Below, piece by piece: positions 48,477-63,756 of a stretch of DNA of 64,000 nucleotides. Each line of letters opens with the position of its first letter. The stretch's first letter is position 1. The translations under genes were made by a program, and so were the position numbers. Source of the stretch: an uncultured Bacillota bacterium. Its GTDB lineage: Bacteria; Bacillota; Clostridia; Christensenellales; Borkfalkiaceae. The notes under the pieces are model-generated. The model was given only the letters and a program-made list of their open reading frames with translations. It made no database searches and was not told the DNA's origin. The DNA lies in contig CASFTB010000006.1 of assembly GCA_949297575.1 (NCBI GenBank), positions 7,908 through 71,907 on the forward strand. The letters are read 5' to 3'.

Positions 48477-50012
48477 ATGCAGCACGAAAAAGTTCTCGTC
48501 CTCGATTTTGGCGGACAGTACAATCAGCTTATCGCCCGCAGGGTGCGCGACCTGAAAGTTTATTGCGACCTCAAGCCCTGCGACATGACCGTCGAAGAGA
48601 TCAAGGCATACGCGCCTATCGGCATCATCTTCACGGGGGGGCCGAACAGCGTCTACGATGCGGCGTCGCCGCATGTGGACGGCGCGATCTTTGACCTCGG
48701 CATCCCTGTCCTCGGCATCTGTTACGGCTGCCAGCTCATCGCCTATACGCTCGGCGGCAAGGTGGAACATGCCGCGACCAGCGAGTACGGCCGCCGCGAA
48801 TTTGCCTTTTGCAAGGAGAGCTCCCTCTCCGCGGGCATCCCCGCAAAGAGTGTCTGTTGGATGAGCCATACCGACCATGTGACCGAGGTGCCTGCCGGCT
48901 TCGAAGTACTCGCCTCCACGGATACCTGCCCCGTCACTGTGTTCGGAAGCGAAAAGAGGCGCATTTACGGCATTCAGTTCCATCCCGAGGTGGTGCATTC
49001 CGAGTACGGCAACAGGATGCTCGAAAATTTCCTGTACCGCGTCTGCGGCGCGCACGGAGACTGGACGATGAAGAATTACGTCACAGAACAGGTCGGGCGC
49101 ATCCGCGAAAAGGTGGGGAGCAAAAAAGTGTTGTGTGCCATGTCGGGCGGGGTGGATTCCGCCGTCGCCGCGACGCTCATCCACCGCGCAGTCGGTGACA
49201 GCCTCACCTGCGTCTTTGTCGACCACGGCCTGCACCGCAAAGATGAGCCGGAAGAGGTCATGTCCGTCTTCCGCGACGGTTTGGGCATGAACCTAATCAA
49301 GGCGGACGCGCAGGATCTCTTTTTGGAGAAGCTCGCAGGGGTGTCCGACCCCGAAAAAAAGCGCAAGATCATCGGCGCGCAGTTCATCGAAGTCTTTGAA
49401 AAGGAGGCGAAGAAGATCGGCGCCGTCGATTTTCTCGTGCAGGGCACCATCTATCCGGACGTGATCGAGAGCGGCAAGGGCAAGAGTGCCGTTATCAAAA
49501 GCCATCACAATGTGGGCGGGCTGCCTTCTGTCGTCGACTTTAAGGAGATCATCGAACCGCTGCGAGACCTGTTCAAGGACGAGGTGCGCAGGCTCGGCAC
49601 GGAGCTCGGTCTGCCCGATTCGGTCGTATGGCGTCAGCCTTGCCCGGGGCCCGCGCTCGCCATCCGCATCATGGGAGAAGTCACGCGCGAAAAGCTCGAA
49701 ACGCTGCGCGAGGCCGACTTTATTTTCCGCGATGAGATCGCCAAAGCGGGGCTGGACAAGCAGATCTGGCAGTACTTCGCCGTCATTACGGACAGCCGGA
49801 CGGTGGGCGTGCAGGGGGATTTCCGTACATACGAGAACGTCATTGCTCTGCGTGCAGTGACGAGCGTGGACGCGATGACCGCAGATTGGGCGCGCATTCC
49901 TTACGACGTATTGGAAAAGGTCTCCGTGCGCATCACCAACGAGGTGCCGCATGCCAACCGCGTCGTCTACGACATCACCTCAAAACCGCCCGCGACCATC
50001 GAGTGGGAGTGA
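48477..50012 (+). CDS. guaA: GMP synthase (glutamine-hydrolysing), full length
   Basis: GATase domain ([11 protein letters not shown]) plus ATP-PPase (SGGVDSAV) plus the dimerisation domain ending in TIEWE. Confidence 0.97.
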
Positions 50013-50142
50013 GCGAGAAAAAGTTTTTGCCTCTTGGCGGAAAATGACCGCAAAGGGGTTTTCTTTTGCCGCGGAATATGTTATACTGAATCGATGTCTT
50101 TCGCGGAGGGTTGCCCTCCGCACACAAAAGGAGGAACGGATC

Positions 50143-51123
50143 ATGAACAACAATAAGCGTCCAGAGAGCATGGCGCGCATTGAAACGAAACAGCTCGCCG
50201 ATGCCTTTATCGCGGAACAGGTCGCGGCGGTCAAAGAGCAGGTAGGAGATAAAAAAGTGCTCCTTGCCCTGTCGGGAGGGGTCGACTCGTCCGTCGTCGC
50301 GGCGCTCCTCATCAATGCGATCGGAAAAAATCTCGTCTGCGTGCACGTCAACCACGGTTTGCTGCGCAAGGGAGAACCGGAGCAGGTCGTCGAGGTGTTC
50401 CGGGATCAAATGAACGCCAACCTCGTCTATGTAGATGCGGCAGAGCGCTTCCTCAAAAAGCTCGAGGGGGTTGCCGAGCCCGAAAAAAAGCGCAAGATCA
50501 TCGGAGCGGAATTTATCCGCGTCTTCGAAGAAGAGGCGCGCAAACAGGACGGCATCGCCTTCCTTGCGCAGGGCACGATCTATCCGGATATCCTTGAAAG
50601 CGGCCCGGTCAAGGCGCATCATAACGTCGGCGGTCTCCCCGATGATATGCAGTTTGAGCTCGTCGAACCCCTGAAATTCTTGTATAAAGACGAGGTGCGC
50701 GTCGTCGGCAAGGCGCTCGGGCTTCCGGACGGTATGGTCTACCGCCAGCCTTTCCCCGGCCCCGGGCTGGGCGTTCGCTGCCTCGGCGCCATCACACGCG
50801 ACCGTCTGGAAGCGGTGCGCGAATCGGACGCCATTCTCCGCGAGGAGTTCGCCAAAAACGGTCTCTCCGGCAAGGTCTGGCAGTACTTTACCGTCATCCC
50901 TGATTTCAAGTCTGTGGGCGTGAAGGGGGGCCTGCGTTCCTTCGAGTGGCCCGTAATCATCCGCGCCGTCAACACGCGGGATGCGATGACCGCGACGGTG
51001 GAGGACGTCCCGTTTGCGCTCCTGCAGCACATTACCGCGCGCATCACTGCGGAAGTAAAGGGGGTAAACCGCGTCGTGTTTGACCTGACCCCGAAGCCTA
51101 CCGGTACCATCGAGTGGGAATAA
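50143..51123 (+). CDS. Stand-alone GMP synthase ATP-pyrophosphatase/dimerisation subunit (GuaA C-terminal paralogue, no GATase domain)
   Basis: 326 aa. LSGGVDSSV P-loop, [31 protein letters not shown] and a TIEWE end. AAAGGAGG SD. The longest ORF (from 49951) overlaps guaA. Confidence 0.85.
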   Translation: MNNNKRPESMARIETKQLADAFIAEQVAAVKEQVGDKKVLLALSGGVDSSVVAALLINAIGKNLVCVHVNHGLLRKGEPEQVVEVFRDQMNANLVYVDAAERFLKKLEGVAEPEKKRKIIGAEFIRVFEEEARKQDGIAFLAQGTIYPDILESGPVKAHHNVGGLPDDMQFELVEPLKFLYKDEVRVVGKALGLPDGMVYRQPFPGPGLGVRCLGAITRDRLEAVRESDAILREEFAKNGLSGKVWQYFTVIPDFKSVGVKGGLRSFEWPVIIRAVNTRDAMTATVEDVPFALLQHITARITAEVKGVNRVVFDLTPKPTGTIEWE

Positions 51124-51263: not shown

Positions 51264-53657
51264 ATGCCTGAACTGACTGCCGAAGAGATACAAAAGCTGA
51301 TCGCGAGCCACAAGCGGCCGGATAAGCAATATTTTTTTGACCTGTTGGACGAGGAAAAACAGCGCGCCTATGAGTCTCTGCGCGTGCACGCCGTCATGAG
51401 CCTGCTTAAGATCGTCTACATCAACAAGCTGAAATTGAAGATCAGAGAGGCGAAAGAGGAGGTCGCCGCCCTGCGCGGCGGCGAGCTGAATGCGGAAACA
51501 TATCAAAAGGTGATCGCGGCCAACGGGCGCATCCGCGCATGGCGTGCGGAGATCGAGAGCTACAAGTGCTTTTTTACCGAGCCGTATTTTGCCCGTATGG
51601 ATGTCGTGGACGACAGCGAGGGCTATAACAGTTACTATATCGGAAAGCGCGGTGACATCGAGCTCGAGATCGTCGACTGGCGCGCGCCCCTTGCACGCAA
51701 ATATTATCAGAAGAGCCAGATCTATTTTTCCATCAACGAATATAATTATAAGCAGATCCTGCGCCGTGCCCTGCGCACCGAAAACGGGCGGTTTCTCGAT
51801 TATAAAAACGAATATCTAAACCTGCGCGACTTTCTCACGAAAGAGGAGATCGCCGGAAGAGACGAGGAGATCATTTTCGATCCGTATCTGAAAGAGATCC
51901 TGCGTGCCCGCAAGGAATCCTCCGAGATCACGGACATCATAGAGACCATACAGGAAAAGCAGTACGAGATCATTACCCGCCCCGAGCGTGACAGCTTTGT
52001 CTTGCAGGGTTGTGCGGGCAGCGGCAAGACCATGATCATGCTGCACCGCCTCAGCTTTCTCATGTACAACGACGCGCGCCTTAAACCGAGCGACGTGCTG
52101 GTCATCACGCCCAGCGACTCCTTCAACTCCTTTATCGACGAGCTGTCTCAGGTCCTCGAACTGGAAAAGGTAAAGACGAAGCGTATCGACGAATATTTCG
52201 CGCAGCTGCTGAAAAACGAGGGCGTGGACATCGAGGACAAGATCGACCGCACGGCGAAAGAACCGGAGGCCTATCTCGCCTACATCTATTCGCAGAAATT
52301 TTACGACGACGTCGGTGCCCGCCTGAAAAAGATCTATGACGGCGTCGCGGGCATGTTCATGGGGAGCGAGGTCTCCGGCGTCATGGCAGACGCGGCGGCG
52401 TCGCTGCGGGCACAGATGGAAGCGTTTGCGGAGATCCGCAATGCGAGCGTCCGCGTGCGCCGCGCCGTGCTCGGCGAGATCAAGGAGCGCGCAGAAGGCG
52501 GTCTCTATTATAACAAGCCTTTCCGCGGACTGATGAACGAAGTGACGGCGGCGGAAGAATTTCTCTCCTGCGATCTAGCCCGCGAAAAGATGGGCAACGA
52601 GAGCTACTTCTACGCAAAGCTGCTCTCTTTTTACCGCGCGGGGAGCGCCATCGTTCGCCAGCATGCGCGCGTCACGGAGACGGCGCTCGCAGACCTGTCG
52701 CACCTGCGGGAGACGGTCTCAAAGGAGATCGCCGACCTGCGCCGCTATAAGATCTACCGCGGCGGCACCGAGGTGGAGACCTATGCCGACCGCATTGCCC
52801 GCCGCGGCGAGCTTCTGGAAGAAATAGATCGGACCGCCGCGCGCGTCCGCGAGATCGCGCACGGGTTTACGGGGTTCAGCGAACTGTTCGAAACGCTGTG
52901 CGGCAACGATCACTTCGTCCGCATCGGAAAGTGCGGCACGCACATCGAACTTGCCAGGCTCTTCTATAAAGAGACGGTGCGCCGCGCGAAAAATAAATTC
53001 GGCATGGGAAAGGGGCTGTACCGCAGCGACCTATACGCGCTCTGCCTTATCTTTGCCCGTCTTGGCAGGCAGCTCGAGCCGCGCTACGGGCTCGTGTTCG
53101 TGGATGAGGGGCAGGATATTTCCGTAAACGAGTACAAGCTGCTGCAATATTTCAACCCGGATGCCTCTTTCAACGTATACGGCGACCTCGCGCAGAACAT
53201 CACGCCGCACCGCGGCCTCTCTTCTTGGGAGAGCGCTTTCGGTTTTCCCGTCTGCACGCTGGAGCAAAATTACAGGAATACCAATCAGATCGTCCGCCTC
53301 GTTGCGGACGGGCTGCACATTTCCATGGCGCCCATCGGTTTTGACGGCCCGCCCGTGCAGCATGTCACGCCGCGCGGCGTGAGTGCTTTTTTCCGCGGGA
53401 AGAAGGGTCTAAAGGCGATCATCGTGCCGGAGACGGGCGGCGAAAAATACCGCCGCAAGGCATACAATATCCCCGCGCAGACGGGGAAGGTCTCCAAAAC
53501 AAAGATCAATCTGCTGACGGTGTATGAATCAAAGGGGCTGGAATTTTCCTGCGTAGCCGTGGCGGACGCACAGATGAACGACCACGAAAAGTACGTCGCC
53601 TATACCCGCGCGCTCAAAGAGCTGGCGATCATCGAGGAGGCCGTACATGAGAAATAA
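51264..53657 (+). CDS. helD: HelD-type UvrD-family helicase (RNA polymerase-associated helicase IV-like)
   Basis: N-terminal coiled coil, then EIVDWRAPLARKYY (HelD signature). Walker A GCAGSGKT and Walker B FVDEGQD, then NYRNT and YVAYTRAL. 797 aa. Confidence 0.85.
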   Translation: MPELTAEEIQKLIASHKRPDKQYFFDLLDEEKQRAYESLRVHAVMSLLKIVYINKLKLKIREAKEEVAALRGGELNAETYQKVIAANGRIRAWRAEIESYKCFFTEPYFARMDVVDDSEGYNSYYIGKRGDIELEIVDWRAPLARKYYQKSQIYFSINEYNYKQILRRALRTENGRFLDYKNEYLNLRDFLTKEEIAGRDEEIIFDPYLKEILRARKESSEITDIIETIQEKQYEIITRPERDSFVLQGCAGSGKTMIMLHRLSFLMYNDARLKPSDVLVITPSDSFNSFIDELSQVLELEKVKTKRIDEYFAQLLKNEGVDIEDKIDRTAKEPEAYLAYIYSQKFYDDVGARLKKIYDGVAGMFMGSEVSGVMADAAASLRAQMEAFAEIRNASVRVRRAVLGEIKERAEGGLYYNKPFRGLMNEVTAAEEFLSCDLAREKMGNESYFYAKLLSFYRAGSAIVRQHARVTETALADLSHLRETVSKEIADLRRYKIYRGGTEVETYADRIARRGELLEEIDRTAARVREIAHGFTGFSELFETLCGNDHFVRIGKCGTHIELARLFYKETVRRAKNKFGMGKGLYRSDLYALCLIFARLGRQLEPRYGLVFVDEGQDISVNEYKLLQYFNPDASFNVYGDLAQNITPHRGLSSWESAFGFPVCTLEQNYRNTNQIVRLVADGLHISMAPIGFDGPPVQHVTPRGVSAFFRGKKGLKAIIVPETGGEKYRRKAYNIPAQTGKVSKTKINLLTVYESKGLEFSCVAVADAQMNDHEKYVAYTRALKELAIIEEAVHEK

Positions 53658-54336
53658 CTTTTTGCTGGATGCGGACGAAACGATCCTCGATTTTGTCCGC
53701 TCTTCCCGTGAGAGTCTGCGGGCAGCCATGAGTGAGGCCGGTCTCCCGTATGCGGAAGAGGACTTTTCGGTCTACAAGGACATCAATGACGGGGTATGGC
53801 GCGAGTACGAGAGGGGGGCACTGACCAAGCCCCGCCTCGTCGTCGAGCGCTTCGCCCGCTTTTTTTCCGCAAAGGGGATAGAGGCGGATCCGGCAGCCGT
53901 CAATGCGCTCTATTTTGCGCGCCTGTGCCGTACGGGCTATCTGTTCGATGGCGCGGAGGCATTTCTGCACGCTTTGCAGGAGAGGGGAAAGGTCTTTCTC
54001 ATCACAAACGGCACGCCGGCCGCGCAGTATGGCCGCCTCAGGGCCGTGGGGCTTTTGAACGCGTTTGACGGGATCTTCGTTTCGGACGAGATCGGGTTCG
54101 CAAAACCGGACGCGCGTTTCTTTTCTTTCGTCCTCGGCAGCACGCATCTGGCGCCGGAGGAGTGCATCGTCATCGGAGATTCGCTCTCTTCCGACATCGC
54201 GGGGGCAAACGCTTCCGGCATCCTCTCGGTATGGTATGCCCCCCGCGGCGGCGAACCGCGCGGCGCGCGCCCGGATGCGGTGGCGCGCAGCTATGCGGAG
54301 GTGCTTTCCGCCGTCGATTCTCTGCGCGGTCTCTGA
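53647..54336 (+). CDS. HAD-superfamily hydrolase, YjjG-like nucleotidase type
   Basis: Motif I LLDADETILDF (DxDxT), TNGT, K at FAKPD, and motif IV GDSLSSDI. It overlaps helD by 11 nt. Confidence 0.85.
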   Translation: MRNNFLLDADETILDFVRSSRESLRAAMSEAGLPYAEEDFSVYKDINDGVWREYERGALTKPRLVVERFARFFSAKGIEADPAAVNALYFARLCRTGYLFDGAEAFLHALQERGKVFLITNGTPAAQYGRLRAVGLLNAFDGIFVSDEIGFAKPDARFFSFVLGSTHLAPEECIVIGDSLSSDIAGANASGILSVWYAPRGGEPRGARPDAVARSYAEVLSAVDSLRGL

Positions 54337-54347
54337 ACACGTCTTTC

Positions 54348-54377
54348 GCCCTTTCCCGTATGGAGAGGGCTTTTTTT
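54348..54377 (+). terminator. helD-HAD operon terminator
   Basis: gccctttcc/ggagagggc 9-bp stem (one G-U), 5-nt loop, then T7 (54371-54377). Confidence 0.85.
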
Positions 54378-54434
54378 GTCAATAAACGGCGAAAACCGCA
54401 CCGAAGAAAAAGCCGCCCTTTTCTCGCCCAACGC

Positions 54435-54463
54435 TTGCTAAAAAGGCGGGGTTGTAGTATAAT
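54435..54463 (+). promoter_or_regulatory. Sigma-A promoter of the giant helicase gene
   Basis: TTGCTA (54435-54440), 17 bp, TATAAT (54458-54463). Confidence 0.7.
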
Positions 54464-54543
54464 GAAAGGGAATAAACGAACGAATGTTTTTGTCCCGCTC
54501 TTTCTTTCGGGGAGGAACGCAGATCATTGAAGCGGAGGATGAT

Positions 54544-57500
54544 ATGGCAGGAAAAAAATCGGCAAAGGCGGCGCTGCGCGAAAGTATCTCACTCAATGTG
54601 AAGGCGCAGCCTTTTTACGGATATGCGGATCACTATAACCGCGTTCCGCTCTTCGTAGCGCTCCAGCTTTCCAACGCGGGGGCGGAGGCCGCGGAAGACA
54701 TAGACGTCGTCATCGAAAACGGCGACGGATTTCTGCTGCCTTTTTCGAAACATTTGGACGACGTGCCTTTTGAAAGTACCGTCGAGATCGCGGCGTCGGG
54801 CATCGTTTCCCCGCTGTATCTGACGGAGCTTTCCGCCGTCGCCGTCGTGACGGTGCAAGTGCGCGCGCTGCACGGCAAAGATGTGCTTGCGGAGGCGGCC
54901 TGCGACGTGACGGTGTTGCCCTTCGACTACTGGAGCGGCAGGGGAGGCAACGCAGAACTGCTTTCCTGCTTTGTCCGCCCGAAGGTCGCCGACTGCGTCC
55001 GTGTGCTCACGGACGCGCAGGCACAGCTGAAAAAGTGGGAGATCGCCTGCGAGTGGCAGGGGTATGCCGAGGGAGACAAGAACAAGATCCGCCGCATCGC
55101 CGCGGCGATCTTTGCCGCGATCAAGCGGCAGTCTGTCGAAAAATCTGCCGCCGAATTCAACTATGACGACCCGATGCCCGTAGGCGACGTCACGAAGATC
55201 CTCAAAAACAGAGTGGGGACGTCCTTTGAGCTCGCGCTCTTCGTCGCCTCCTGTTTCGAATGTGCGGGCCTGCACCCCGTTCTGGCGGTCGGCGAGAAGG
55301 CGGTATCCTGCGGCGTATGGCTGTATGAAAATTGTTTTTCCGACTGTTCGGGAGACGACACCGTTCTCCTGCAAAATTACATTTCCGACGGCATCAACAA
55401 TATCAGCATGTTCGACATCGAGGACCTGTTTGCCGGAAAGAATGTCAATTATACCGTCGCGGAAAAGCACTTCGCACAAAAATTGGAAAACGGCTGGTTT
55501 GACACCGTCGTCGACGTGAAGCGCTGCCGCCTCGCCCGCATCGGGCCGCTCCCTCTGAAGGTGAAGGGGATCGGCGGCTATGAGCTGCTGGGCGAGCGCG
55601 ACACGGACATCAACGCCGCACCCGAAGAGATCTCGGGCGCGCGTAAGCTCAGCCTTGACGGAAAAGCGACCAAGAACAAGCAGTGGGAAAGGAGGCTGCT
55701 CGACCTCTCTCTCAAAAATTCACTGCTCAATTTCCGCCCCGATAAAAACGTGCTGCATATCCTCTCGTCGGATATCAATGCGACGTACGAAAATATTTCT
55801 TCTGGAGAAGAATTCACGCTGCTGGAGAAGACGACGGATGTGCGCGGCGTCCTGCCCGTATCCGGGTATTTCCCTGCGCCGTCTTCCCTCTCTGTGCTCT
55901 CCGAACTGCTCTCCCTCGAACTGAAAAACCGCCGTCTGCGCACGTGGTCAGACAGGGAAGAGATCGCCGACGTCCTGCGCTTCCTGCAAAAAAAGGCCAA
56001 AACGGCGGAGGAGGAAGCCGGGGCAAACGTGCTCTTCCTCGCGTTCGGGTTTTTGAAATGGTACGAATCTGGAGGGAATGAGCCGAAGTATGCGCCGCTC
56101 GTCCTCCTTCCCGTGCATATTTCCCGCAGCAAGGGAGGAAAGGGCTGGTCCGTTTCCCTGTCGGGGGAGGAGATGCAGTTCAATACGACCCTGCTCGAAT
56201 TTTTGCTGCGCGAGTTCAAGATCGACATCCGCGGCCTCGACAACATCGGCTCCGGTATACGCATTTCCGAGATCATGGCAATGGTCAAGATGGAAGTGCT
56301 CAACATGAAGGGGTGGGAGGTCTTCGACGAGGTCTATCTCGCGAACTTCTCCTTCGCACGCTTCGCCATGTGGAACGATGTGCGCAAAAATATCGATAAA
56401 TTCCGCAAAAATCCTCTCGTCCGCTCTCTGCTTGAAAACCGCCTCGTGCTCACCGACAACGTGATGGAGGATAAGCCGGAGGACGATTACGCCCCGGACG
56501 AGATCCTGACGCCGCTCATGGCGGACGGCTCGCAGTTCGAGGCGGTCGCGGAAGCGGTCTCGGGGGCTACCTTCGTGTTGCACGGCCCTCCCGGAACGGG
56601 TAAGAGCCAGACCATCACCAACATCATAGCAAACAGCCTGAACCGCGGCAAGCGCGTCCTCTTCGTCGCAGAAAAGCAGGCGGCGCTCTCCGTCGTCAAA
56701 AAGAGGCTGGATTCGGTCGGGCTGGGGGATTTCTGCCTTGAGCTGCACGGAAAGATCGACAAGGCGCAGCTGCTCAAAAAGATGGAGACGACGCTTTCTC
56801 TCGCGGCGGTGCAGGAAGATCCAGACTTTTCGGCGAAGAGCGAGCAGATCGCCGAGGTGCGCAAAGCGCTCAACGAGCCCGTCATTGCCCTTCATAAGAA
56901 GCGCAGGCTGGGCGTCTCCGTATATGAAGGCATCCTGATCTACCTGAAAAACAGAAATGCGCCGGATGTGCTCGATATCGAGAGCACCTTTTACGATCGC
57001 CTGACGAAGGAAAAACTTGAGAGCTATGAAAATATGCTCATCGAAGTCTCGGCGGCGGCAAAACAGTGCGGGGGCGTGCACCGCTCGCCTTTCGACAACG
57101 TCAATATCAGCGAATACAATGCGGACCTGCGCAACAGGGTCTATTATTCCGCCGAAGTGCTCCTCACTGAGATCAAGCATCTGCGCGGATACTTGTCGCT
57201 CTTTCTCGATTTTTACAGGCAGCGCGTCAGCTCGTTCACCCAGAAAAAGCTCAAAGCGCTCGTGCAGCTGGTCGATCTGCTGCGCGGCGGCGAGCTTGAC
57301 AGTTATTTCCGCAGCGACGAAAACGAGTTTTACGTCTTTTTCAATGCAAACCGCAGGCTGGACCGTCTGCTCGGCACCTATTTCAAGAATTTCAAGGTGC
57401 TCATCGATCTGGACGCGGACCCCGCCGTCGTCGAGCAGGAGCTGGACAACTGGGGGGAGAATTACAAGAGTTCGCGCGTCCTTTCCGCCATCGCAAAGAG

Positions 57501-60213
57501 GCTGCGCCGCGCCGCGGTCGACAAACTCGCCCCCGAAGACGAGCTCAAATATATAGGCATCGTCGCGCAGATTTATGAGGACCTCAGCCTCGCGCGCGCA
57601 AACACGGCGCTCTCGCAGAATTATACAGACCGCGGCGGCAGGATCAATTTCCGCAGGCGGGAGGAGTTTTTCGAGCCGCTGAAGCGTATGCACGCCCTCG
57701 CGGAGGGAGTGTTCATGGATTACAATGCGGACAGCTTCAACAGCATGTGCGTCAAATCGGTGACGGGAGATTTCGCCTACCCGATCCTAGACGGGCTGCG
57801 CCGCTGTGTCGTGGGGTTTGAAAACGCCCTCGATGCCTTCTGCGGCGTGATCAACGCTGAGCCCGAAAAATATTACGACGAGGATATTCTCGACTATTTC
57901 GGGCAGAAGGCCGGGGCGCTCATCGACAACATCGATATGCTCGCCGCCTGGTGCATGTTCAAAAAGATCTCCGCGCGCCTGAACGAAGAGGGACTCTCTT
58001 TCGTGACCGATTCCCTCGAATCGGGGGCTGTGACGTCCGAAAACATCCTCGATAGTTTCCGCAAAAACGTCTATCGCAATTTCATCGAGACAAACATCGG
58101 CGCCGATCCTGTGCTCTCCAAGTTTTCTGCTTCCGTCCTGGAGGAGAAGATCGAGCAGTTCCGCGTCCTCGACGAACAGTTTATAAAACTTTCTCGCGAA
58201 CACGTCCGCGCGAAGCTCATCTCACGGCTTCCCACGACTTCGACGGAGGGCAGCCTCAGCCTGGAAGTGCTGGCTTTTCAGCGCATCGCCAAGAGCAACA
58301 TGCGCGGCATGACGCTTAAAGAGTTGTTCGCGGAGATCCCCGAACTGTTTCCGCGCATCGCGCCCTGCGTGCTTATGAGCCCCATCACGGTCGCGCAGTA
58401 CCTTCGCGCCGAACCGGACCTCTTCGACCTCGTCGTCTTTGACGAGGCGTCGCAGCTTCCGACCAGCGAAGCGGTGGGCGCGCTCGCCCGCGCGAAGAGC
58501 GCCGTCATCGTCGGCGATCCCAAACAGCTGCCGCCGACATCCTTCTTCACTTCCGGGTATGTGGATGAAGAGAACCTCGATGCGGAGGATCTGGAGAGTA
58601 TCCTCGACGATTGCCTCGCCCTCGGCGTCCCCGAGCGGCACCTCAACTGGCATTACCGCAGCAAGCACGAGAGCCTTATCGCCTTCTCAAACATCATGTA
58701 TTACGGGGGCAAACTGTGCACCTTCCCTTCGCCCGATGCGCTGGAAAGCAAAGTGCGCCTCGCCCTCGTGGACGGCATCTATGACCGCGGCTTCACTAAG
58801 AGGAACAAGGGCGAAGCGGAAGCGCTGGTCGCCGAAGTGGTGCGGCGGCTCAAAGACCCCGTGCTTTCCCGTTCGAGTATTGGCATCGTCACGTTCAGCA
58901 CGGCGCAGCAGGATTACATCGAACGCCGCCTCACGGATGCGCTTGTCAAAAATCAGCTGGAAGATGCCGCGTATGAGAGGGAGGAGCCGATCTTTATCAA
59001 GAATCTCGAAAACGTGCAGGGCGACGAACGAGACGTCATTCTCTTTTCTGTGTGCTACGGCCCCGACCGATCCGGGCGCGTTTCGCTCAACTTCGGCCCG
59101 CTCAATCAGGCGGGCGGCTGGCGCCGGCTCAATGTCGCCGTTTCCCGCGCGCGCGAGGAGATGGTCGTGTTTTCTTCGATGACGTCGGCAATGATCAACC
59201 TCGCCAAGACGAACAGCAAGGGTGTCGCCGGGCTCAAGGCATTCCTCGAATTTGCAGAGAAGGGGAAGACCTCCCTCGCCATCAGTTCGGACGAGCTTAA
59301 AAAGGTACAGGGCGGCATAGGGAAATACATCGCCCGCGAACTCAAAACGTACGGTTACGAGTGCCGCTACGATGTCGGCGTCTCCGATTTCAGGATCGAC
59401 TGTGCCGTCATCGACCCCAAAAACAAAAAGCGCTTTATCCTGGCCATCCTCTGCGACGGTACGACGGCCTCCCGCTCGAGCGCAAAGGACCGCAATATTT
59501 TGCAGGTACAGACGCTCAAGCTCAACAACTGGAACGTCGCCCGCATCTTTACGATCAACTTCATCAATAACCCCAAGAGGGAGATCAAAAAGATCAAAGA
59601 TATCCTCGACCGCCTCACCGGTGCGGAAAAGGCGGGCAGGGATTTCCTGTCAAAATACCGCAAGAACTATCGCTATGCGAAGCTCGAACAGCTGCAAAAT
59701 CTCTCCGTATATGTGACGTGCGGAGAAAATGACGGCGAGATCGCGTCACGCCTCAGGGCGATCGCCGCCGCAGAGGAGCCGTTCAGCGAAAAATTCCTCA
59801 TGAAGCGGTGCCTCTCTTCCCTGGGTATCCAGAAGTACGGACAGAAGGTGGAAGAGCGGCTGCAGATGCTGATCGGGCTTTGCGGGCTGAAGAGCGAGGA
59901 GCTGTGCGGCAAGACCTATCTCCGCAAGACGGATAAATGCCTCGATTGCGACTTCTACCGCGTAGAGGCGGGCGAACCGATCCGCCGTTCGGAGGACGAT
60001 TTTACGCCCTACGAGATCATCGCCCTCATCAAGGGCCTGTTGGAAAATAAAGTCAGCCTGTATGAGGATGAGCTCGTCCGCTCGGTCTGCGCCGAATTAA
60101 AGGTGGCGCGCCCCGGAGACAAACTCATCGAATTTATCGGTGAATGCGTGTCCCTCGGCGTCGAGCGCTCCGTCTTCCTGCGCTCGGTCAGTGACCGCAT
60201 CAGTCTGTGCTGA
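54544..60213 (+). CDS. Giant (1,889 aa) DUF4011-type Upf1-like SF1 helicase with an N-terminal transglutaminase-like module, a C-terminal Vsr/DUF559-like (MTES_1575-type) fold and a DUF3320-like region
   Basis: ATG 54544 lies 5 nt after GGAGG. The longest ORF begins at 54484 without an SD. Motifs: LLDLSLKNSLLNFR, GPPGTGKSQ (56584-56610), DEASQ (58441-58455), GDPKQLPPT, HYRSKHESLIAFSN, QGDERDVILFS and LNVAVSRAREEM. Also FRIDCAVIDP...LAILCDG (59353-59460). Confidence 0.9.
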   Translation: MAGKKSAKAALRESISLNVKAQPFYGYADHYNRVPLFVALQLSNAGAEAAEDIDVVIENGDGFLLPFSKHLDDVPFESTVEIAASGIVSPLYLTELSAVAVVTVQVRALHGKDVLAEAACDVTVLPFDYWSGRGGNAELLSCFVRPKVADCVRVLTDAQAQLKKWEIACEWQGYAEGDKNKIRRIAAAIFAAIKRQSVEKSAAEFNYDDPMPVGDVTKILKNRVGTSFELALFVASCFECAGLHPVLAVGEKAVSCGVWLYENCFSDCSGDDTVLLQNYISDGINNISMFDIEDLFAGKNVNYTVAEKHFAQKLENGWFDTVVDVKRCRLARIGPLPLKVKGIGGYELLGERDTDINAAPEEISGARKLSLDGKATKNKQWERRLLDLSLKNSLLNFRPDKNVLHILSSDINATYENISSGEEFTLLEKTTDVRGVLPVSGYFPAPSSLSVLSELLSLELKNRRLRTWSDREEIADVLRFLQKKAKTAEEEAGANVLFLAFGFLKWYESGGNEPKYAPLVLLPVHISRSKGGKGWSVSLSGEEMQFNTTLLEFLLREFKIDIRGLDNIGSGIRISEIMAMVKMEVLNMKGWEVFDEVYLANFSFARFAMWNDVRKNIDKFRKNPLVRSLLENRLVLTDNVMEDKPEDDYAPDEILTPLMADGSQFEAVAEAVSGATFVLHGPPGTGKSQTITNIIANSLNRGKRVLFVAEKQAALSVVKKRLDSVGLGDFCLELHGKIDKAQLLKKMETTLSLAAVQEDPDFSAKSEQIAEVRKALNEPVIALHKKRRLGVSVYEGILIYLKNRNAPDVLDIESTFYDRLTKEKLESYENMLIEVSAAAKQCGGVHRSPFDNVNISEYNADLRNRVYYSAEVLLTEIKHLRGYLSLFLDFYRQRVSSFTQKKLKALVQLVDLLRGGELDSYFRSDENEFYVFFNANRRLDRLLGTYFKNFKVLIDLDADPAVVEQELDNWGENYKSSRVLSAIAKRLRRAAVDKLAPEDELKYIGIVAQIYEDLSLARANTALSQNYTDRGGRINFRRREEFFEPLKRMHALAEGVFMDYNADSFNSMCVKSVTGDFAYPILDGLRRCVVGFENALDAFCGVINAEPEKYYDEDILDYFGQKAGALIDNIDMLAAWCMFKKISARLNEEGLSFVTDSLESGAVTSENILDSFRKNVYRNFIETNIGADPVLSKFSASVLEEKIEQFRVLDEQFIKLSREHVRAKLISRLPTTSTEGSLSLEVLAFQRIAKSNMRGMTLKELFAEIPELFPRIAPCVLMSPITVAQYLRAEPDLFDLVVFDEASQLPTSEAVGALARAKSAVIVGDPKQLPPTSFFTSGYVDEENLDAEDLESILDDCLALGVPERHLNWHYRSKHESLIAFSNIMYYGGKLCTFPSPDALESKVRLALVDGIYDRGFTKRNKGEAEALVAEVVRRLKDPVLSRSSIGIVTFSTAQQDYIERRLTDALVKNQLEDAAYEREEPIFIKNLENVQGDERDVILFSVCYGPDRSGRVSLNFGPLNQAGGWRRLNVAVSRAREEMVVFSSMTSAMINLAKTNSKGVAGLKAFLEFAEKGKTSLAISSDELKKVQGGIGKYIARELKTYGYECRYDVGVSDFRIDCAVIDPKNKKRFILAILCDGTTASRSSAKDRNILQVQTLKLNNWNVARIFTINFINNPKREIKKIKDILDRLTGAEKAGRDFLSKYRKNYRYAKLEQLQNLSVYVTCGENDGEIASRLRAIAAAEEPFSEKFLMKRCLSSLGIQKYGQKVEERLQMLIGLCGLKSEELCGKTYLRKTDKCLDCDFYRVEAGEPIRRSEDDFTPYEIIALIKGLLENKVSLYEDELVRSVCAELKVARPGDKLIEFIGECVSLGVERSVFLRSVSDRISLC

Positions 60214-60214
60214 C

Positions 60215-60547
60215 ATGAAGCGCGCAGCGGTCGGCATAGCGCTCTGCGCGGCCCTTCTGGCAGCCTTTGCCGCGGCAGCTCTGCTGCCCGCGGCAGGTGC
60301 GCCGCGGATGGAGCCGCTTTGGAGCGGAGTGTCCGAGGAGGTGGAGTACGGCGGAGAGGTGGATGTCCTGGTTCAAGGCGCAGTCGCTTTTCCGGGCAGA
60401 TACACAGTGCCGTATAACTGTACGTACGGCGAACTCTTCGCCCTCGCGGGGGCGGAGTGTGCGGCGGGATACGATCCGGATGAGCCCCTTCGCTTTGAAG
60501 ATGCGGTGCTTTCCGGCGGCAGACTGATCGTGTACATCGTGGTGTGA
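60215..60547 (+). CDS. ComEA-like SLBB-domain protein lacking the helix-hairpin-helix DNA-binding region
   Basis: 110 aa. Signal/anchor MKRAAVGIALCAALLAAFAAAALL, and VDVLVQGAVAFPGRYTVPYNCTYGELFALAGA resembles the ComEA SLBB segment. ATG lies 1 nt after the upstream stop, with no SD. Confidence 0.55.
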   Translation: MKRAAVGIALCAALLAAFAAAALLPAAGAPRMEPLWSGVSEEVEYGGEVDVLVQGAVAFPGRYTVPYNCTYGELFALAGAECAAGYDPDEPLRFEDAVLSGGRLIVYIVV

Positions 60548-60551
60548 GGGA

Positions 60552-62732
60552 ATGATGGGAGAAAAGGGGGAAAGCCGCCTGCGGCGTTTAACGCATGCCA
60601 TCTATGCAGGGGATCGGATGGTCAATTTCCGCCCCTTCTTTTTGCTGTCTCTGGGTTTCGGCCTGGGGATCTTTTGTTGCTTTTTCCTCGGCATCGGCGC
60701 GCTGTGGCTGGATCTTCTCCTGTTGCCCGTGGCCGCTTGCACGCTGCTTTTCCTGAAACGGAAGTGCGCCGCGGCCCTGCTCTTTGCCTGTCTCGTCTTT
60801 GCCCTCTTTACGCTCGGCACCCTCTCCTTTGCCATGCGCATCGCGGCGTTCGAGCGCGTCCCCGCCACAGAGGGCAATTGCGCCGTCCGCGGCGTCGTGG
60901 AAGAGGTGGGGCGCACGGAAGAGACGGACGTCTTTACGTTCGGCTCTTTGACCGTCGTATGTGAGAGCGGCGAGCACTTTGAAACGGACTACCGTGTGCA
61001 GGTATTTGTCTATGGCGAGACGGGCGCCGCGCCTCTCTCTGCCGGGACGGTCGCCGTCTTCGAGGCTGAGATGCAGACCTATGACGTCTGCTCGTACGGG
61101 AGGCTCAATTCCTCTGCCGTCATCGGGCGCATCCGCTACCGCGCGTTTGTAGGGGCGGAGGAGTTTTACGTCATAGAAGAGAGGGGAGAGGACATCTTTT
61201 CCGCCGTGCGCGGCCGTGTCGGAGAGGTGCTCTTTCAGAGCATGGACGAGGAGAGCGCCGCCCTCTCGTATGCCATGCTGACGGGCAACAGTGGCTTTAT
61301 GGAGGAGGAACTTCTGCAAAATTTCCGATACGGCGGCATCGCGCACATCTTTGCCGTTTCCGGCCTGCACATCGGCATCATCGCGGGGCTTCTGTACGCG
61401 CTCTGTAAAAAGCTGCGCGTCCGCCCGTACATATCGTTGCCCGTCATCGCGGCCGTCCTCATTTTTTATTCGGGCGTATGCGGCTTTTCTCCTTCGTCCC
61501 TCCGCGCCGTCGTCATGTGCCTCGTGCCCATGCTCGCGTCGGCGTTCGGAAAGAACTGCGACCGCCTCAACTCCGTCTCTGTGGCCGCGCTCGTCGTTCT
61601 CCTCATCGACCCTGTCTTTCTGTTTTCCATAGGGTTTCAGCTCTCGCTCGCGGCCGCGGCGGGCATCATCCTGCTGGGCGGGAACCTCTCGCGCCTGCTT
61701 GCCCGCGTCCGCTTTATTCCGAAAAAGATCTCTTCTGCACTCTCCGTCGCCTTTTCGGCGCAGATGTGCACATTTCCCTTCCTGATCGATGCTTTCGGGT
61801 ATACGTCTGGGCTCAGCCTTCTCCTCAACCTCCTGTTTATCCCCGTCATAAGCGCGGTGTTTTCCGTGCTGTTCGCGTTTACGGCTGCGGCGTGCGTCTT
61901 TCCCTCCGCGGCCGTGTGGCTGCTGTATCTTCCGTCCTACCTGCTGCGCATCGCGGTCTTGCCGATCACGCTCGTCGAATTCGATGTTTTGCTCATCTGC
62001 GGTTTCTCCTTCGGCGGACTTACGGCGCTCTGGCTCTTGCTCTGCTGGCTGATGACGGACAAGATCAACCTGCGTCCTGTCCTGCGCGGCTGTGCATGCG
62101 GCATCCTCTGCGGAGTTCTGACGGTCTGCATGGTCTTTTACAATCTTCCTGTCGGCTGCGATGCGGTCATGACGGTGCACAGTTACTACGGGAGCAACCT
62201 GCTCCTTCTGCGCGTGGGAGGAGAAACACATCTGATCGCGGCGGGAATGCCTGATGAAAAGCATGTAGAGACGCTCTTCTTGAAGGAGGGGATAAGATCG
62301 CTCGACGGCGTCATCGTTCTCGCCGCCCCGCGGGACATCAATACGGCGGTCCCCGTGCTGCTTTCGCATGCTTCCTTCGACACGCTCTATGTGCCCGCTT
62401 CTGCCGGTTTTCCCGATGCCTTCCAAACGGTAGACGTCGTTGCACCGCACGGTTTCTTCTATTTGGGAGAGACGCCCGCCTGCTTTACTGGGGAAAATGC
62501 GCTCTATCTCAACATTTGCGGCGCGGGAGCCGTCGTCGCGGCGGACGAACAGGCAGAGCTGCCCCGCTGCGACCTTCTCCTTGCCCCCGCACCTTCGGAT
62601 GCCTTTTCGGCCTGCGCGCCTTCCCTCTCGGTCTATTTTGAAAAAGCGGAAGGCAATTTGTCGGTATACTCCGCGGGCGACTTGCAAATCGGCTGGAAAA
62701 ATGGTATAATCTCCGTAAAGAGAGCGAGATAA
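60552..62732 (+). CDS. comEC: ComEC/Rec2 DNA internalisation channel protein (metallo-beta-lactamase-like domain without metal ligands)
   Basis: Competence domain GIAHIFAVSGLHIGIIAGLLY and many TM helices. The C-terminal domain lacks HxHxDH. An alternative in-frame start at ATG 60618 has a better SD (AGGGGA). Confidence 0.88.
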   Translation: MMGEKGESRLRRLTHAIYAGDRMVNFRPFFLLSLGFGLGIFCCFFLGIGALWLDLLLLPVAACTLLFLKRKCAAALLFACLVFALFTLGTLSFAMRIAAFERVPATEGNCAVRGVVEEVGRTEETDVFTFGSLTVVCESGEHFETDYRVQVFVYGETGAAPLSAGTVAVFEAEMQTYDVCSYGRLNSSAVIGRIRYRAFVGAEEFYVIEERGEDIFSAVRGRVGEVLFQSMDEESAALSYAMLTGNSGFMEEELLQNFRYGGIAHIFAVSGLHIGIIAGLLYALCKKLRVRPYISLPVIAAVLIFYSGVCGFSPSSLRAVVMCLVPMLASAFGKNCDRLNSVSVAALVVLLIDPVFLFSIGFQLSLAAAAGIILLGGNLSRLLARVRFIPKKISSALSVAFSAQMCTFPFLIDAFGYTSGLSLLLNLLFIPVISAVFSVLFAFTAAACVFPSAAVWLLYLPSYLLRIAVLPITLVEFDVLLICGFSFGGLTALWLLLCWLMTDKINLRPVLRGCACGILCGVLTVCMVFYNLPVGCDAVMTVHSYYGSNLLLLRVGGETHLIAAGMPDEKHVETLFLKEGIRSLDGVIVLAAPRDINTAVPVLLSHASFDTLYVPASAGFPDAFQTVDVVAPHGFFYLGETPACFTGENALYLNICGAGAVVAADEQAELPRCDLLLAPAPSDAFSACAPSLSVYFEKAEGNLSVYSAGDLQIGWKNGIISVKRAR
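62682..62710 (+). promoter_or_regulatory. Consensus promoter embedded in the 3' end of comEC, upstream of holA
   Basis: TTGCAA (62682-62687), 17 bp ending in TGg, TATAAT (62705-62710), 42 nt upstream of the holA ATG. Confidence 0.55.
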
Positions 62733-62751: not shown

Positions 62752-63756
62752 ATGAAATTTGTCTTATTCAAGAAGAGTTTGGAAGAGGGGGCGTCGCCCA
62801 TCTATCTTTTCGAAGGGGAGGAAGAATATTTCAAAGAACGCGGGGAGGAAATGCTCAAAGAGAGGTTTCTCGGCGAGCCGTCCCTCAATTACTCCGTGTT
62901 CCGCGGGGAGCAGCTCAAGGGCGCGGCGATGACGGCGCTCACGGCCGCGGCGCAGAGCTTTCCCTTCCTCAGCGAAAAGCGCATCGTAAAGGTCACGGAT
63001 TTTTACCCGACGGAAAAGGAGTTCGATGCCTATCTTCGGGGGTATTTTGAAGACCCGCCCCGCGAGACCATCCTCCTCATCGTCAATTCCGCTCCGCAGA
63101 AGGGCAGGGGAGCCGACCTGAAAAAGGCGCCCAACGTCGTCTTTGTAGATTGCGGCAGGGCGGATGAAGACACTGTTCTCCGCTGGATCTATACCCGATT
63201 CAAGCGGGAAGGGATCGCGGCGGATACCGAGTGCTGCGAGCGCATCATGCGCTATTGCCTGGGCGATATGTCGCGTATTGCGGGAGAGACGGAAAAGCTG
63301 ATCGCCTTTGCGGACAAGGGCGGCCGTATCTCGGCTGCGGACGTAGACGACGTCGTATACAGGGATTACGACTATAAGCTCTACGAGATGACGGGCGCCT
63401 TCGGATCGCACAATTACGGAAAATTTGTCTCTGTACAGCGCGAATTGATGGAACGCGGCGCAGACGAGGGTGCCGTCCTCAACGCCCTCTGCTCTTATTT
63501 CCGCGGCATGCTCGACATCTGCCTCTTGTCGAAGGGGGATGCGGACACCGCGCGTGCCCTCGGCATGAAGGAATATGCGGTGAAGATGAGCAGGCGCCAG
63601 GCAAGATCCATCGGCGCGCAGCGCGTGCGGGATTGCTGGGAGTATGTCTACACCGCCGTCAATTCCGTTAAATCGGGCGGGATCTCTTCGGCGGCGGCCT
63701 TGCTGAAGGTGAACGCGCAATTATTTTTTGGCGGGGCGGCAAATGTCGCCGAATAG
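62752..63756 (+). CDS. holA: DNA polymerase III delta subunit
   Basis: 334 aa. The N-terminal pattern PIYLFEGEEEYFKE..., overall collinearity with HolA and the conserved comEC-holA linkage support the call. Confidence 0.85.
   Translation: MKFVLFKKSLEEGASPIYLFEGEEEYFKERGEEMLKERFLGEPSLNYSVFRGEQLKGAAMTALTAAAQSFPFLSEKRIVKVTDFYPTEKEFDAYLRGYFEDPPRETILLIVNSAPQKGRGADLKKAPNVVFVDCGRADEDTVLRWIYTRFKREGIAADTECCERIMRYCLGDMSRIAGETEKLIAFADKGGRISAADVDDVVYRDYDYKLYEMTGAFGSHNYGKFVSVQRELMERGADEGAVLNALCSYFRGMLDICLLSKGDADTARALGMKEYAVKMSRRQARSIGAQRVRDCWEYVYTAVNSVKSGGISSAAALLKVNAQLFFGGAANVAE

Follow-up and report, generated by a model that had tools for sequence, protein, structure and literature searches.

The window, a 64,000-nucleotide stretch of contig CASFTB010000006.1 (positions 7,908–71,907) from an uncultured Bacillota bacterium of the Borkfalkiaceae, contains on its forward strand, at 54544–60213, the gene of a giant helicase of the ProA family. 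The product of 1,889 amino acids, followed by a stop codon, is arranged as an N-terminal β-sandwich, a transglutaminase-like core, a DUF4011 domain, an Upf1-like superfamily 1 (SF1) helicase with a large insert, a Vsr-like domain and two winged helices. The translation passes the NCBIfam equivalog NF058533.1, “anti-phage protein ProA”, with 1545.3 bits (E = 0) against a cutoff of 1500; the best stretch aligns residues 27–1696 with model positions 2–1711 of 1903, and a second stretch is reported without coordinates. Typical members are matched over positions 1–1903 in one stretch, and representatives with an intact catalytic triad score 2096–2282 bits. The PADLOC profile PDC-S37 is matched by residues 379–1871 over positions 11–1532 of 1550, with an E-value of 7.5e-301. 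PADLOC entries of the PDC type are candidates drawn from genomic association and not validated systems.

The same architecture was described by Anantharaman, Makarova, Burroughs, Koonin and Aravind (Anantharaman et al. 2013, Biol Direct 8:15; PMC3710099) in giant proteins that join a transglutaminase-like peptidase to an SF1 helicase, a novel restriction endonuclease of the Vsr family, which corresponds to the Pfam MTES_1575 domain, and two domains of the winged helix-turn-helix (wHTH) type, a pair that overlaps DUF3320. Some of these proteins also carry an N-terminal HEPN RNase domain. The authors predicted a modification-independent defence, in which invading DNA is recognised through the wHTH domains. 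An earlier sequence-only reading of this DNA, the first-pass annotation, regarded the domain combination as catalogued only under domains of unknown function, which is contradicted by the ProA equivalog, by PDC-S37 and by this published architecture. The gene is already catalogued as a ProA-family member, and no new category is needed.

The open reading frame (ORF) called on the forward strand spans 54484–60213. Translation more likely begins with the ATG at 54544, since a Shine-Dalgarno sequence, GGAGGA, lies at 54534–54539, 4 nt upstream, and the N-termini of orthologues align from “ATGGCAG”; the spacer alignment shows a purine-rich GGAG-like block in front of ATGGCAG in the orthologues as well. 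A sigma-A type promoter, TTGCTA-17 nt-TATAAT (54435–54463), was found by scanning and matches the consensus at 10 of 12 positions. It follows an intrinsic terminator at 54348–54377 that ends the yjjG-like gene and consists of a 9-bp stem (54348–54370, six GC pairs) and a T-run. In the yjjG–helicase spacers of the window and seven orthologous loci the CTTG of the −35 element and the TATAAT of the −10 element do not vary and the surroundings of the ATG are conserved, while the mean column identity of these eight spacers is 37%. This conservation supports a real promoter, predicted to be of a constitutive type. The gene model, the terminator and the helicase gene's own promoter had all been proposed in the first-pass annotation, and each was recovered here.

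The same spacers hold a second conserved bipartite element at 54358–54385 on the forward strand, GTAT(A/G)-N15-G(G/T)(C/G)AATAA, which lies upstream of the sigma-A −35 element at a distance of about 50 nt. It is found at fixed spacing in seven of the eight spacers though the flanks diverge, the first half reading GCATA in locus L093, and its GTATG belongs to the hairpin loop of the yjjG terminator. With up to one mismatch the window has two occurrences of the pattern, where 0.13 would be expected by chance. Forespore promoters of the sigma-F type have GTATA as the −35 element, a 15-nt spacer and GGnnAnAnTA as the −10 element, which the bipartite element presumably resembles; it could alternatively be the site of a regulator.

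The N-terminal module was modelled with AlphaFold2 over residues 1–383 (predicted local distance difference test, pLDDT, 86; predicted template modelling score, pTM, 0.82). The model shows a β-sandwich at residues 15–124 (54586–54915), followed by an α/β core at residues 137–350 (54952–55593), an order common to animal transglutaminases and this module. Foldseek against the PDB gives matches at a marginal E of about 1e-3, which include fish, factor XIII, TG2 and TG3 transglutaminases, the transglutaminase-like cysteine protease 3isr and the PNGase 3esw; the sandwich is matched to the immunoglobulin-like β-sandwiches of factor XIII, TG2 and TG3, and the core to 1g0d, 3isr and 3esw. Pfam Transglut_core (PF01841) gives no match to the window protein at E ≤ 1, and therefore the assignment of this papain-fold core relies on the family alignment, on weak matches of relatives and on the marginal Foldseek hits. 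Of the 14 sequences aligned for the N-terminal module, six have weak Transglut_core matches (best E 0.0018) and three match DUF553, a transglutaminase-like domain. The structural comparison proposed in the first-pass annotation thus returned transglutaminase-type folds, at E-values that remain marginal, and the resemblance is one of fold and not of enzymatic membership.

A phmmer search with residues 1–383 against 1.84 billion representative proteins returned 1,377 proteins at E ≤ 0.001, in most of which the match is the N-terminal part of a protein of 1,850–2,300 residues. A profile search of 5.8 billion proteins with the N-terminal alignment gave only 26 close-clade fragments, none of them named. 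Many family members of 2,100–2,400 residues have about 130–260 extra residues ahead of the N-terminal module (for example P0163, P0171, P0189, P0209, P0218, P0241, P0246 and P0251); they probably correspond to the published versions with a HEPN domain. No HEPN domain was matched by Pfam in the window protein, and HEPN is considered absent since the protein begins directly with the β-sandwich at residue 15.

The core has lost the peptidase residues. At the positions of S227, A253 and D272 in the window protein, 96 of 143 family representatives have the triad Cys-His-Asp, in the typical context G-T-C-L-D ... G-H-A-F-x-G-x-W-L-E ... D-D. When the 78 full-length representatives, one per 50%-identity cluster, are ranked by similarity, the 15 nearest to the window protein are all devoid of Cys and His, both of which are retained in almost every other one. 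Among 117 close homologues, position 227 is Ser, Pro, Ala or Lys but never Cys, position 253 is Glu, Ser, Gly or Asn, with His in only two, and D272 is invariant. Although the catalytic positions vary freely in this set, the domain is conserved at the protein average. On this alignment the subfamily of the window looks like the outcome of one ancient loss of the peptidase Cys and His, with the fold kept since. The absence of both residues had been recognised in the first-pass annotation from a stretch that is indeed present, at 55216–55293 instead of the 55215–55292 originally given.

The DUF4011 domain (residues 384–554; 55693–56205) matches the full length of Pfam PF13195 with an E-value of 1.6e-38, and its signature segments LLDLSLKNSLLNFR and LFLAFGFLKWYE lie at 55696 and 56032. 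The Upf1-like SF1 helicase core that follows (residues 660–1550; 56521–59193), identified by Pfam AAA_11 and AAA_12, is split by an insert of about 560 residues (731–1290; 56734–58413) between motif Ia and Walker B, which contains no known domain and no significant Pfam match. Walker A, GPPGTGKSQ, lies at 56584 (residue 681) and DEASQ, the Walker B motif, at 58441 (residue 1300), and further motifs are GDPKQLPPT at 58513, HYRSKHESLIAFSN at 58651, QGDERDVILFS at 59017 and LNVAVSRAREEM at 59128. All SF1B motifs (Q, I, Ia, II, III, IV, V and VI) were located, their residues being invariant across 14 diverse homologues, and by its motifs the Upf1-like SF1B set is complete and the motor is predicted to be intact. 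In a sequence search of the PDB, the matches (IGHMBP2, Sen1 and Upf1) were confined to the helicase core, with no solved ProA or Hhe relative among them; the NCBIfam model TIGR00376 matches the protein partially (E 1.7e-32). Every SF1 and DUF4011-type motif quoted in the first-pass annotation is present in the translation, and the Pfam comparison that it recommended confirms DUF4011, AAA_11, AAA_12 and MTES_1575; its positions for the two Walker motifs hold as well, with a spacing of 619 residues.

The Vsr-like domain of the restriction-endonuclease fold (MTES_1575; residues 1596–1686, 59329–59601) is matched by Pfam PF18741 with an E-value of 2.3e-18 and 66.5 bits, against a gathering cutoff of 38.2. 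The canonical Vsr/DUF559-like motif is ExDG..YH. The window protein reads FRID(1619)...LAIL(1636)-C-D(1638)-G-TT-A-S...K-D(1649)-R(1650), so that LCDG..AS replaces the canonical Glu and the Tyr-His pair, as had been noted before; the fold proposed at the same time is upheld by Pfam, the FRIDCAVIDP segment starting at 59389 instead of 59353. The variant is not peculiar to this protein. Among 77 full-length family representatives, Glu occurs at position 1636 in only six and Tyr-His in only six, whereas D1619 is retained in 72, D1638 in 72, D1649 in 75 and R1650 in 72. The Glu-less motif, present in 71 of the 77, is therefore the family norm and is also seen in representatives with ProA-model scores of 2100–2280 bits. 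All of the 117 close homologues have D1619 and D1638. The domain is 84% identical among near and 70% among far homologues, as compared with protein averages of 76% and 56%, and only the motor is better conserved. The putative site is conserved but non-canonical.

Downstream of the nuclease fold, the AlphaFold2 model of the C-terminus (pLDDT 80) contains an α/β unit resembling a restriction endonuclease and then two units with a helix-helix-helix-strand-strand topology, at about residues 1730–1794 (59731–59925) and 1822–1888 (60007–60207). Foldseek relates this region, with marginal E-values, to proteins with tandem winged helices (among them cullin WH-B, RPC62, SelB, the JetABC complex and Rpc5) as well as to TnsA. 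The first unit overlaps a weak match to DUF3320, the family named in the earlier reading; at 17.4 bits (E 0.0044) it remains below the Pfam cutoff of 25. In the model the two units would be wHTH domains, which agrees with the assignment made in 2013.

The ratio of nonsynonymous to synonymous substitution rates (dN/dS) was estimated against the closest orthologue, L088 (88% amino acid identity), and amounts to 0.07 for the whole protein, 0.045 for the transglutaminase-like core, 0.11 for the Vsr-like domain, 0.04 for the motor and 0.10 for the insert; these ratios are approximate because dS is about 1.0 and near saturation. The insert is 73% identical among near and 52% among far homologues. 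More than 500 homologues were found, and almost all of the 120 listed measure about 1,880–1,930 residues, down to 55% identity. By these estimates every module is under strong purifying selection and none is evolving in a neutral manner. The description of two decayed catalytic modules in the first-pass annotation is therefore correct as to the missing catalytic residues but not as to decay, given the low ratios of both modules and the Glu-less motif being the family norm; for the nuclease domain in particular the term is misleading, because its motif is family-wide and its conservation exceeds the protein average.

The helicase gene is flanked by housekeeping genes, the row being guaA, a paralogue resembling the C-terminal part of guaA, a HelD-like ATPase, a YjjG-type nucleotidase, the helicase, an ORF of 110 residues, comEC and holA; the paralogue, the HelD-like gene, the helicase and all that follow it lie on the forward strand. 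The HelD/HelR-like gene (51264–53657, 797 residues), related to motors of RNA polymerase recycling, scores about 100 bits, below the family cutoffs of 419–1100. The yjjG-like nucleotidase gene spans 53647–54336, comEC, encoding the DNA internalisation channel, 60552–62732 (TIGR00360, E 1.4e-29, above cutoff) and holA, encoding the delta subunit of DNA polymerase III, 62752–63756 (TIGR01128, 174.6 bits against a cutoff of 80). The helicase gene abuts this comEC–holA cluster, in line with the earlier reading that it is joined to the comE operon.

The junction to this cluster is tight. In the sequence TGA-C-ATG at 60211–60217 the helicase stop codon is 1 nt from the next start codon, which has no visible Shine-Dalgarno sequence, as also read previously. 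No promoter-like and no strong terminator-like site was found by scanning from the helicase stop to comEC, and further downstream there is only one weak terminator-like site, inside comEC, and no promoter-like site. It is plausible that transcripts of the helicase gene would extend through the small ORF, comEC and holA, and plausible as well that the helicase would be co-expressed with DNA uptake.

The small ORF (60215–60547) encodes a membrane-anchored, SLBB-like protein of 110 residues with a signal-anchor-like N-terminus; searches of Pfam, NCBIfam and the PDB with this protein itself gave no match. By tblastn it is found in only six orthologous loci (L005, L029, L088, L090, L091 and L101), all with a helicase at least 78% identical to that of the window; six homologues are 110–117 residues long and one of them matches Pfam SLBB (PF10531). 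Judged by sequence, the protein resembles the N-terminal part of ComEA without the helix-hairpin-helix DNA-binding domain, which is considered absent from the group because all homologues have only 110–117 residues. The “comEA-like” label given earlier is thus supported by the SLBB match of one homologue, but an identity as ComEA is rejected for lack of a family match of its own and of the helix-hairpin-helix domain.

The proteins 88% identical to the window helicase come from Candidatus Borkfalkia avicola, placed in the Christensenellales by NCBI, and the chromosome of the window is Candidatus Borkfalkia-like. Of 23 species-representative genomes with a relative of at least 49% identity, 14 have ComEC and HolA after the helicase; the nine that do not have Christensenella-type loci with the downstream genes on the other strand. 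The HelD-like gene is found upstream in 16 of 29 clade loci, and the upstream side is variable, with rimP-nusA-infB-rbfA in L004. In about 50 loci with relatives below 49% identity (Bacteroidota, Lachnospiraceae, Planctomycetota, Proteobacteria and others), neither ComEC nor HolA was detected within 8 kb by tblastn and clade-built profiles. The pairing with comEC–holA is explained by descent, since it is missing in nine clade genomes and in these distant loci; it is inherited synteny within the Christensenellales and not a recurrent independent association. A competence linkage of the whole family, which the first-pass annotation had suggested looking for in orthologue neighbourhoods, is rejected on the basis of these searches over 84 loci. 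A recent horizontal acquisition of the gene is likewise rejected, as no GC anomaly is seen and the synteny is conserved.

The surroundings of the distant relatives are varied, some lying among metabolic genes, and in the loci compared no gene recurs as a partner throughout the family. In Pedobacter gandavensis (L059, 14313–18469, forward strand) two tandem genes of the GmrSD type (type IV restriction) lie directly downstream of the ProA-family gene, a context like that of a defence island, as opposed to the housekeeping context in the window. A convergent reverse-transcriptase gene follows the ProA-family gene in Dysgonomonas sp. (L032, 13833–15023, reverse strand) and in Bacteroides finegoldii (L085, 14843–15973, reverse strand); these neighbours match Pfam RVT_1 (E 1.5e-24) or are annotated as “reverse transcriptase family protein”, and the pairing may be recurrent in Bacteroidales. 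In Ruminococcus albus 8 (L079, 14969–21670, forward strand) a second giant ORF of 2,234 residues lies about 1.3 kb downstream on the same strand. A conjugative plasmid of P. aeruginosa carries one relative in its cargo region, and 531 plasmid records contain a relative, annotated as “DUF3320 domain-containing protein”. Many plasmid relatives (Klebsiella, Rhizobium) align in tblastn only from residue 493 onwards, leaving the N-terminal module unaligned.

Further upstream in the window, the complete GMP synthase gene guaA (48477–50012) is directly followed, with a slight overlap, by a gene of 390 residues at 49951–51123, matched by TIGR00884 (E 1e-134) over the ATP-pyrophosphatase half only. An orthologous locus has a 432-residue gene of the same guaA-C type further upstream in the same syntenic block. 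The gene at 49951–51123 appears to be a conserved guaA-C paralogue without the glutamine amidotransferase domain.

The reading that is preferred, with moderate confidence, is that of a single-gene, constitutively expressed ProA-family protein with a pseudo-peptidase module, which would survey or restrict foreign or aberrant DNA in an ATP-driven manner. Such a function is what the family is given by its curated name and by the prediction of 2013 (PMC3710099). The GmrSD, reverse-transcriptase and conjugative-plasmid surroundings of the distant relatives are counted in its favour. The gene is transcribed from its own conserved housekeeping-type promoter, and transcription probably continues into the small SLBB gene, comEC and holA. 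DNA binding would be the task of the DUF4011 region and of the two winged helices at the C-terminus. Upf1-like SF1B helicases translocate 5′ to 3′, and the intact ATPase motor is expected to move in the same direction. The Vsr-like domain may then either cut DNA with its variant acidic site (D1619, D1638 and D1649-R1650) or clamp it, while the pseudo-transglutaminase and β-sandwich module would serve as a binding, sensor or regulatory surface and not as a peptidase.

Several observations weigh against surveillance as the function of this protein. Its ProA score is barely over the cutoff, and that of its clade-mate P0124 is below it (1461 bits). The anti-phage label is the curated NCBI name only, since a literature search did not find the primary report on ProA. 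DNA cleavage is not assured, because the nuclease motif is without the canonical Glu and His. The gene also behaves like a core gene and not like the cargo of an island: its GC content of 57.3%, close to the 58.4% of the window, shows no compositional anomaly, in most loci the helicase surpasses HolA, ComEC and YjjG in tblastn best-segment identity, and among loci found through HolA alone, all ten with enough upstream DNA show the order HelD-YjjG-helicase-ComEC-HolA.

These last observations support the main rival explanation, namely that the protein is a domesticated housekeeping factor of the Christensenellales, no longer active in defence and recruited to a core nucleic-acid transaction such as repair, processing of fork or transcription conflicts, or the handling of incoming transforming DNA together with ComEC. 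The order HelD-like gene, (YjjG), helicase, ComEC and HolA in 14 of the 23 species-level genomes, kept in the ten informative loci that were found independently, speaks for this explanation, as do the high conservation of the helicase relative to its neighbours, the dN/dS of 0.07, the close spacing to the next gene with no promoter or strong terminator between, and the loss of the peptidase effector residues. In P. aeruginosa, too, a gene with DUF4011 belongs to the core genome, where it flanks a hotspot (PMC10250203). However, no housekeeping role is documented for any family member, the adjacency to ComEC and HolA is missing in nine clade genomes and in all of the roughly 50 distant loci, so that descent explains the pairing, and a neighbourhood by itself is no proof of functional coupling; core-genome defence genes exist as well. 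Domestication is for these reasons rated as rather unlikely.

In a further scenario, a member of a mobile anti-phage helicase-nuclease family became fixed as a core, vertically inherited Christensenellales gene, its peptidase turned into a pseudo-enzyme and its transcription was joined to that of comEC and holA, so that the protein would now police or process DNA arriving by the competence channel, or maintain the genome, instead of serving as a classical accessory defence; this scenario is regarded as doubtful. Equally doubtful is the view that the protein is a nuclease-independent motor or sensor with both side modules catalytically dead, acting as a translocase, a remover of roadblocks or a scaffold that recruits effectors. 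The lack of Cys and His in the transglutaminase-like core, the missing ExDG Glu and Tyr-His and the intact motor motifs are in line with it. On the other hand, the Vsr-like domain keeps D1619, D1638 and D1649-R1650 and is the best conserved segment after the motor, and no gene recurs as a partner in the family as a whole. Moreover, the Glu-less motif of 71 of the 77 representatives includes members with ProA scores of 2100–2280 bits, and for that reason the variant site is probably competent if ProA requires a nuclease. A decaying relic of a defence gene on the way to a pseudogene, to which the substituted catalytic residues in two modules might point, is very improbable and is rejected on its dN/dS (0.04–0.11 in every module) and near-constant length, the frame being intact over 1,889 codons and the promoter and start codon conserved.

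What is added here to the ProA family is a coherent subfamily that looks like the product of a single loss of the peptidase triad and whose fold, motor, nuclease-fold domain and winged helices stayed under strong purifying selection, and in one order of gut bacteria the ProA-family gene occupies a fixed locus in the manner of a core gene. Should the mechanism of ProA be worked out, the peptidase-dead subfamily would be a natural separation-of-function mutant for the non-catalytic role of the N-terminal module. It is also a test case for defence-type proteins turning into housekeeping genes. That the Vsr-like domain is without the canonical Glu and His throughout the family cautions against assuming that ProA proteins cut DNA in the manner of Vsr/DUF559-like enzymes.

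Among known defence systems, the PADLOC search that the first-pass annotation had called for returned defence-type matches to PDC-S37, Hhe and the Mokosh proteins MkoA and MkoC, but membership in Hhe and in Mokosh fails on score and coverage. Mokosh, like other defence proteins with a COG1112 helicase, has an Upf1-like SF1 motor as well (MkoA E 1e-31, MkoC E 1e-30); the matches, however, are partial, lie within residues 1293–1570 in the C-terminal part of the helicase and leave the other modules unmatched, and membership is rejected.

Hhe, the closest named system, is missing from the first-pass annotation and is said to be a single-gene system going back to Gao et al. in 2020. It combines DUF4011, an SF1 helicase and a Vsr-like nuclease on one polypeptide and provides the second-best NCBIfam match of the window protein (NF042953.1, 714.9 bits over residues 1113–1711; PADLOC PDLC02194, E 1e-150). 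This strong but partial match is far under the cutoff of 2000 bits and extends over no more than the nuclease and, in the motor, the C-terminal half, and membership is therefore rejected. PDC-S37 is matched nearly over its full length, from DUF4011 to the C-terminus, yet its profile excludes the N-terminal module of 380 residues.

The giant proteins of the MTES_1575 type share with the window protein the domain order of transglutaminase-like module, SF1 helicase, Vsr-family endonuclease and two wHTH domains. Unlike their prototype, which has an N-terminal HEPN domain and whose endonuclease domain family carries ExDG..YH in the Pfam consensus, the window protein has no HEPN, an inactive transglutaminase-like triad and the motif LCDG..AS. 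Typical ProA proteins carry Cys-His-Asp, whereas the subfamily of the window is without Cys and His and straddles the cutoff of the model (1545 and 1461 bits), and the window gene is a fixed chromosomal gene and not mobile cargo. With ProA the window protein nevertheless shares the overall architecture, the length and an N-terminal module that lies inside the NF058533.1 model.

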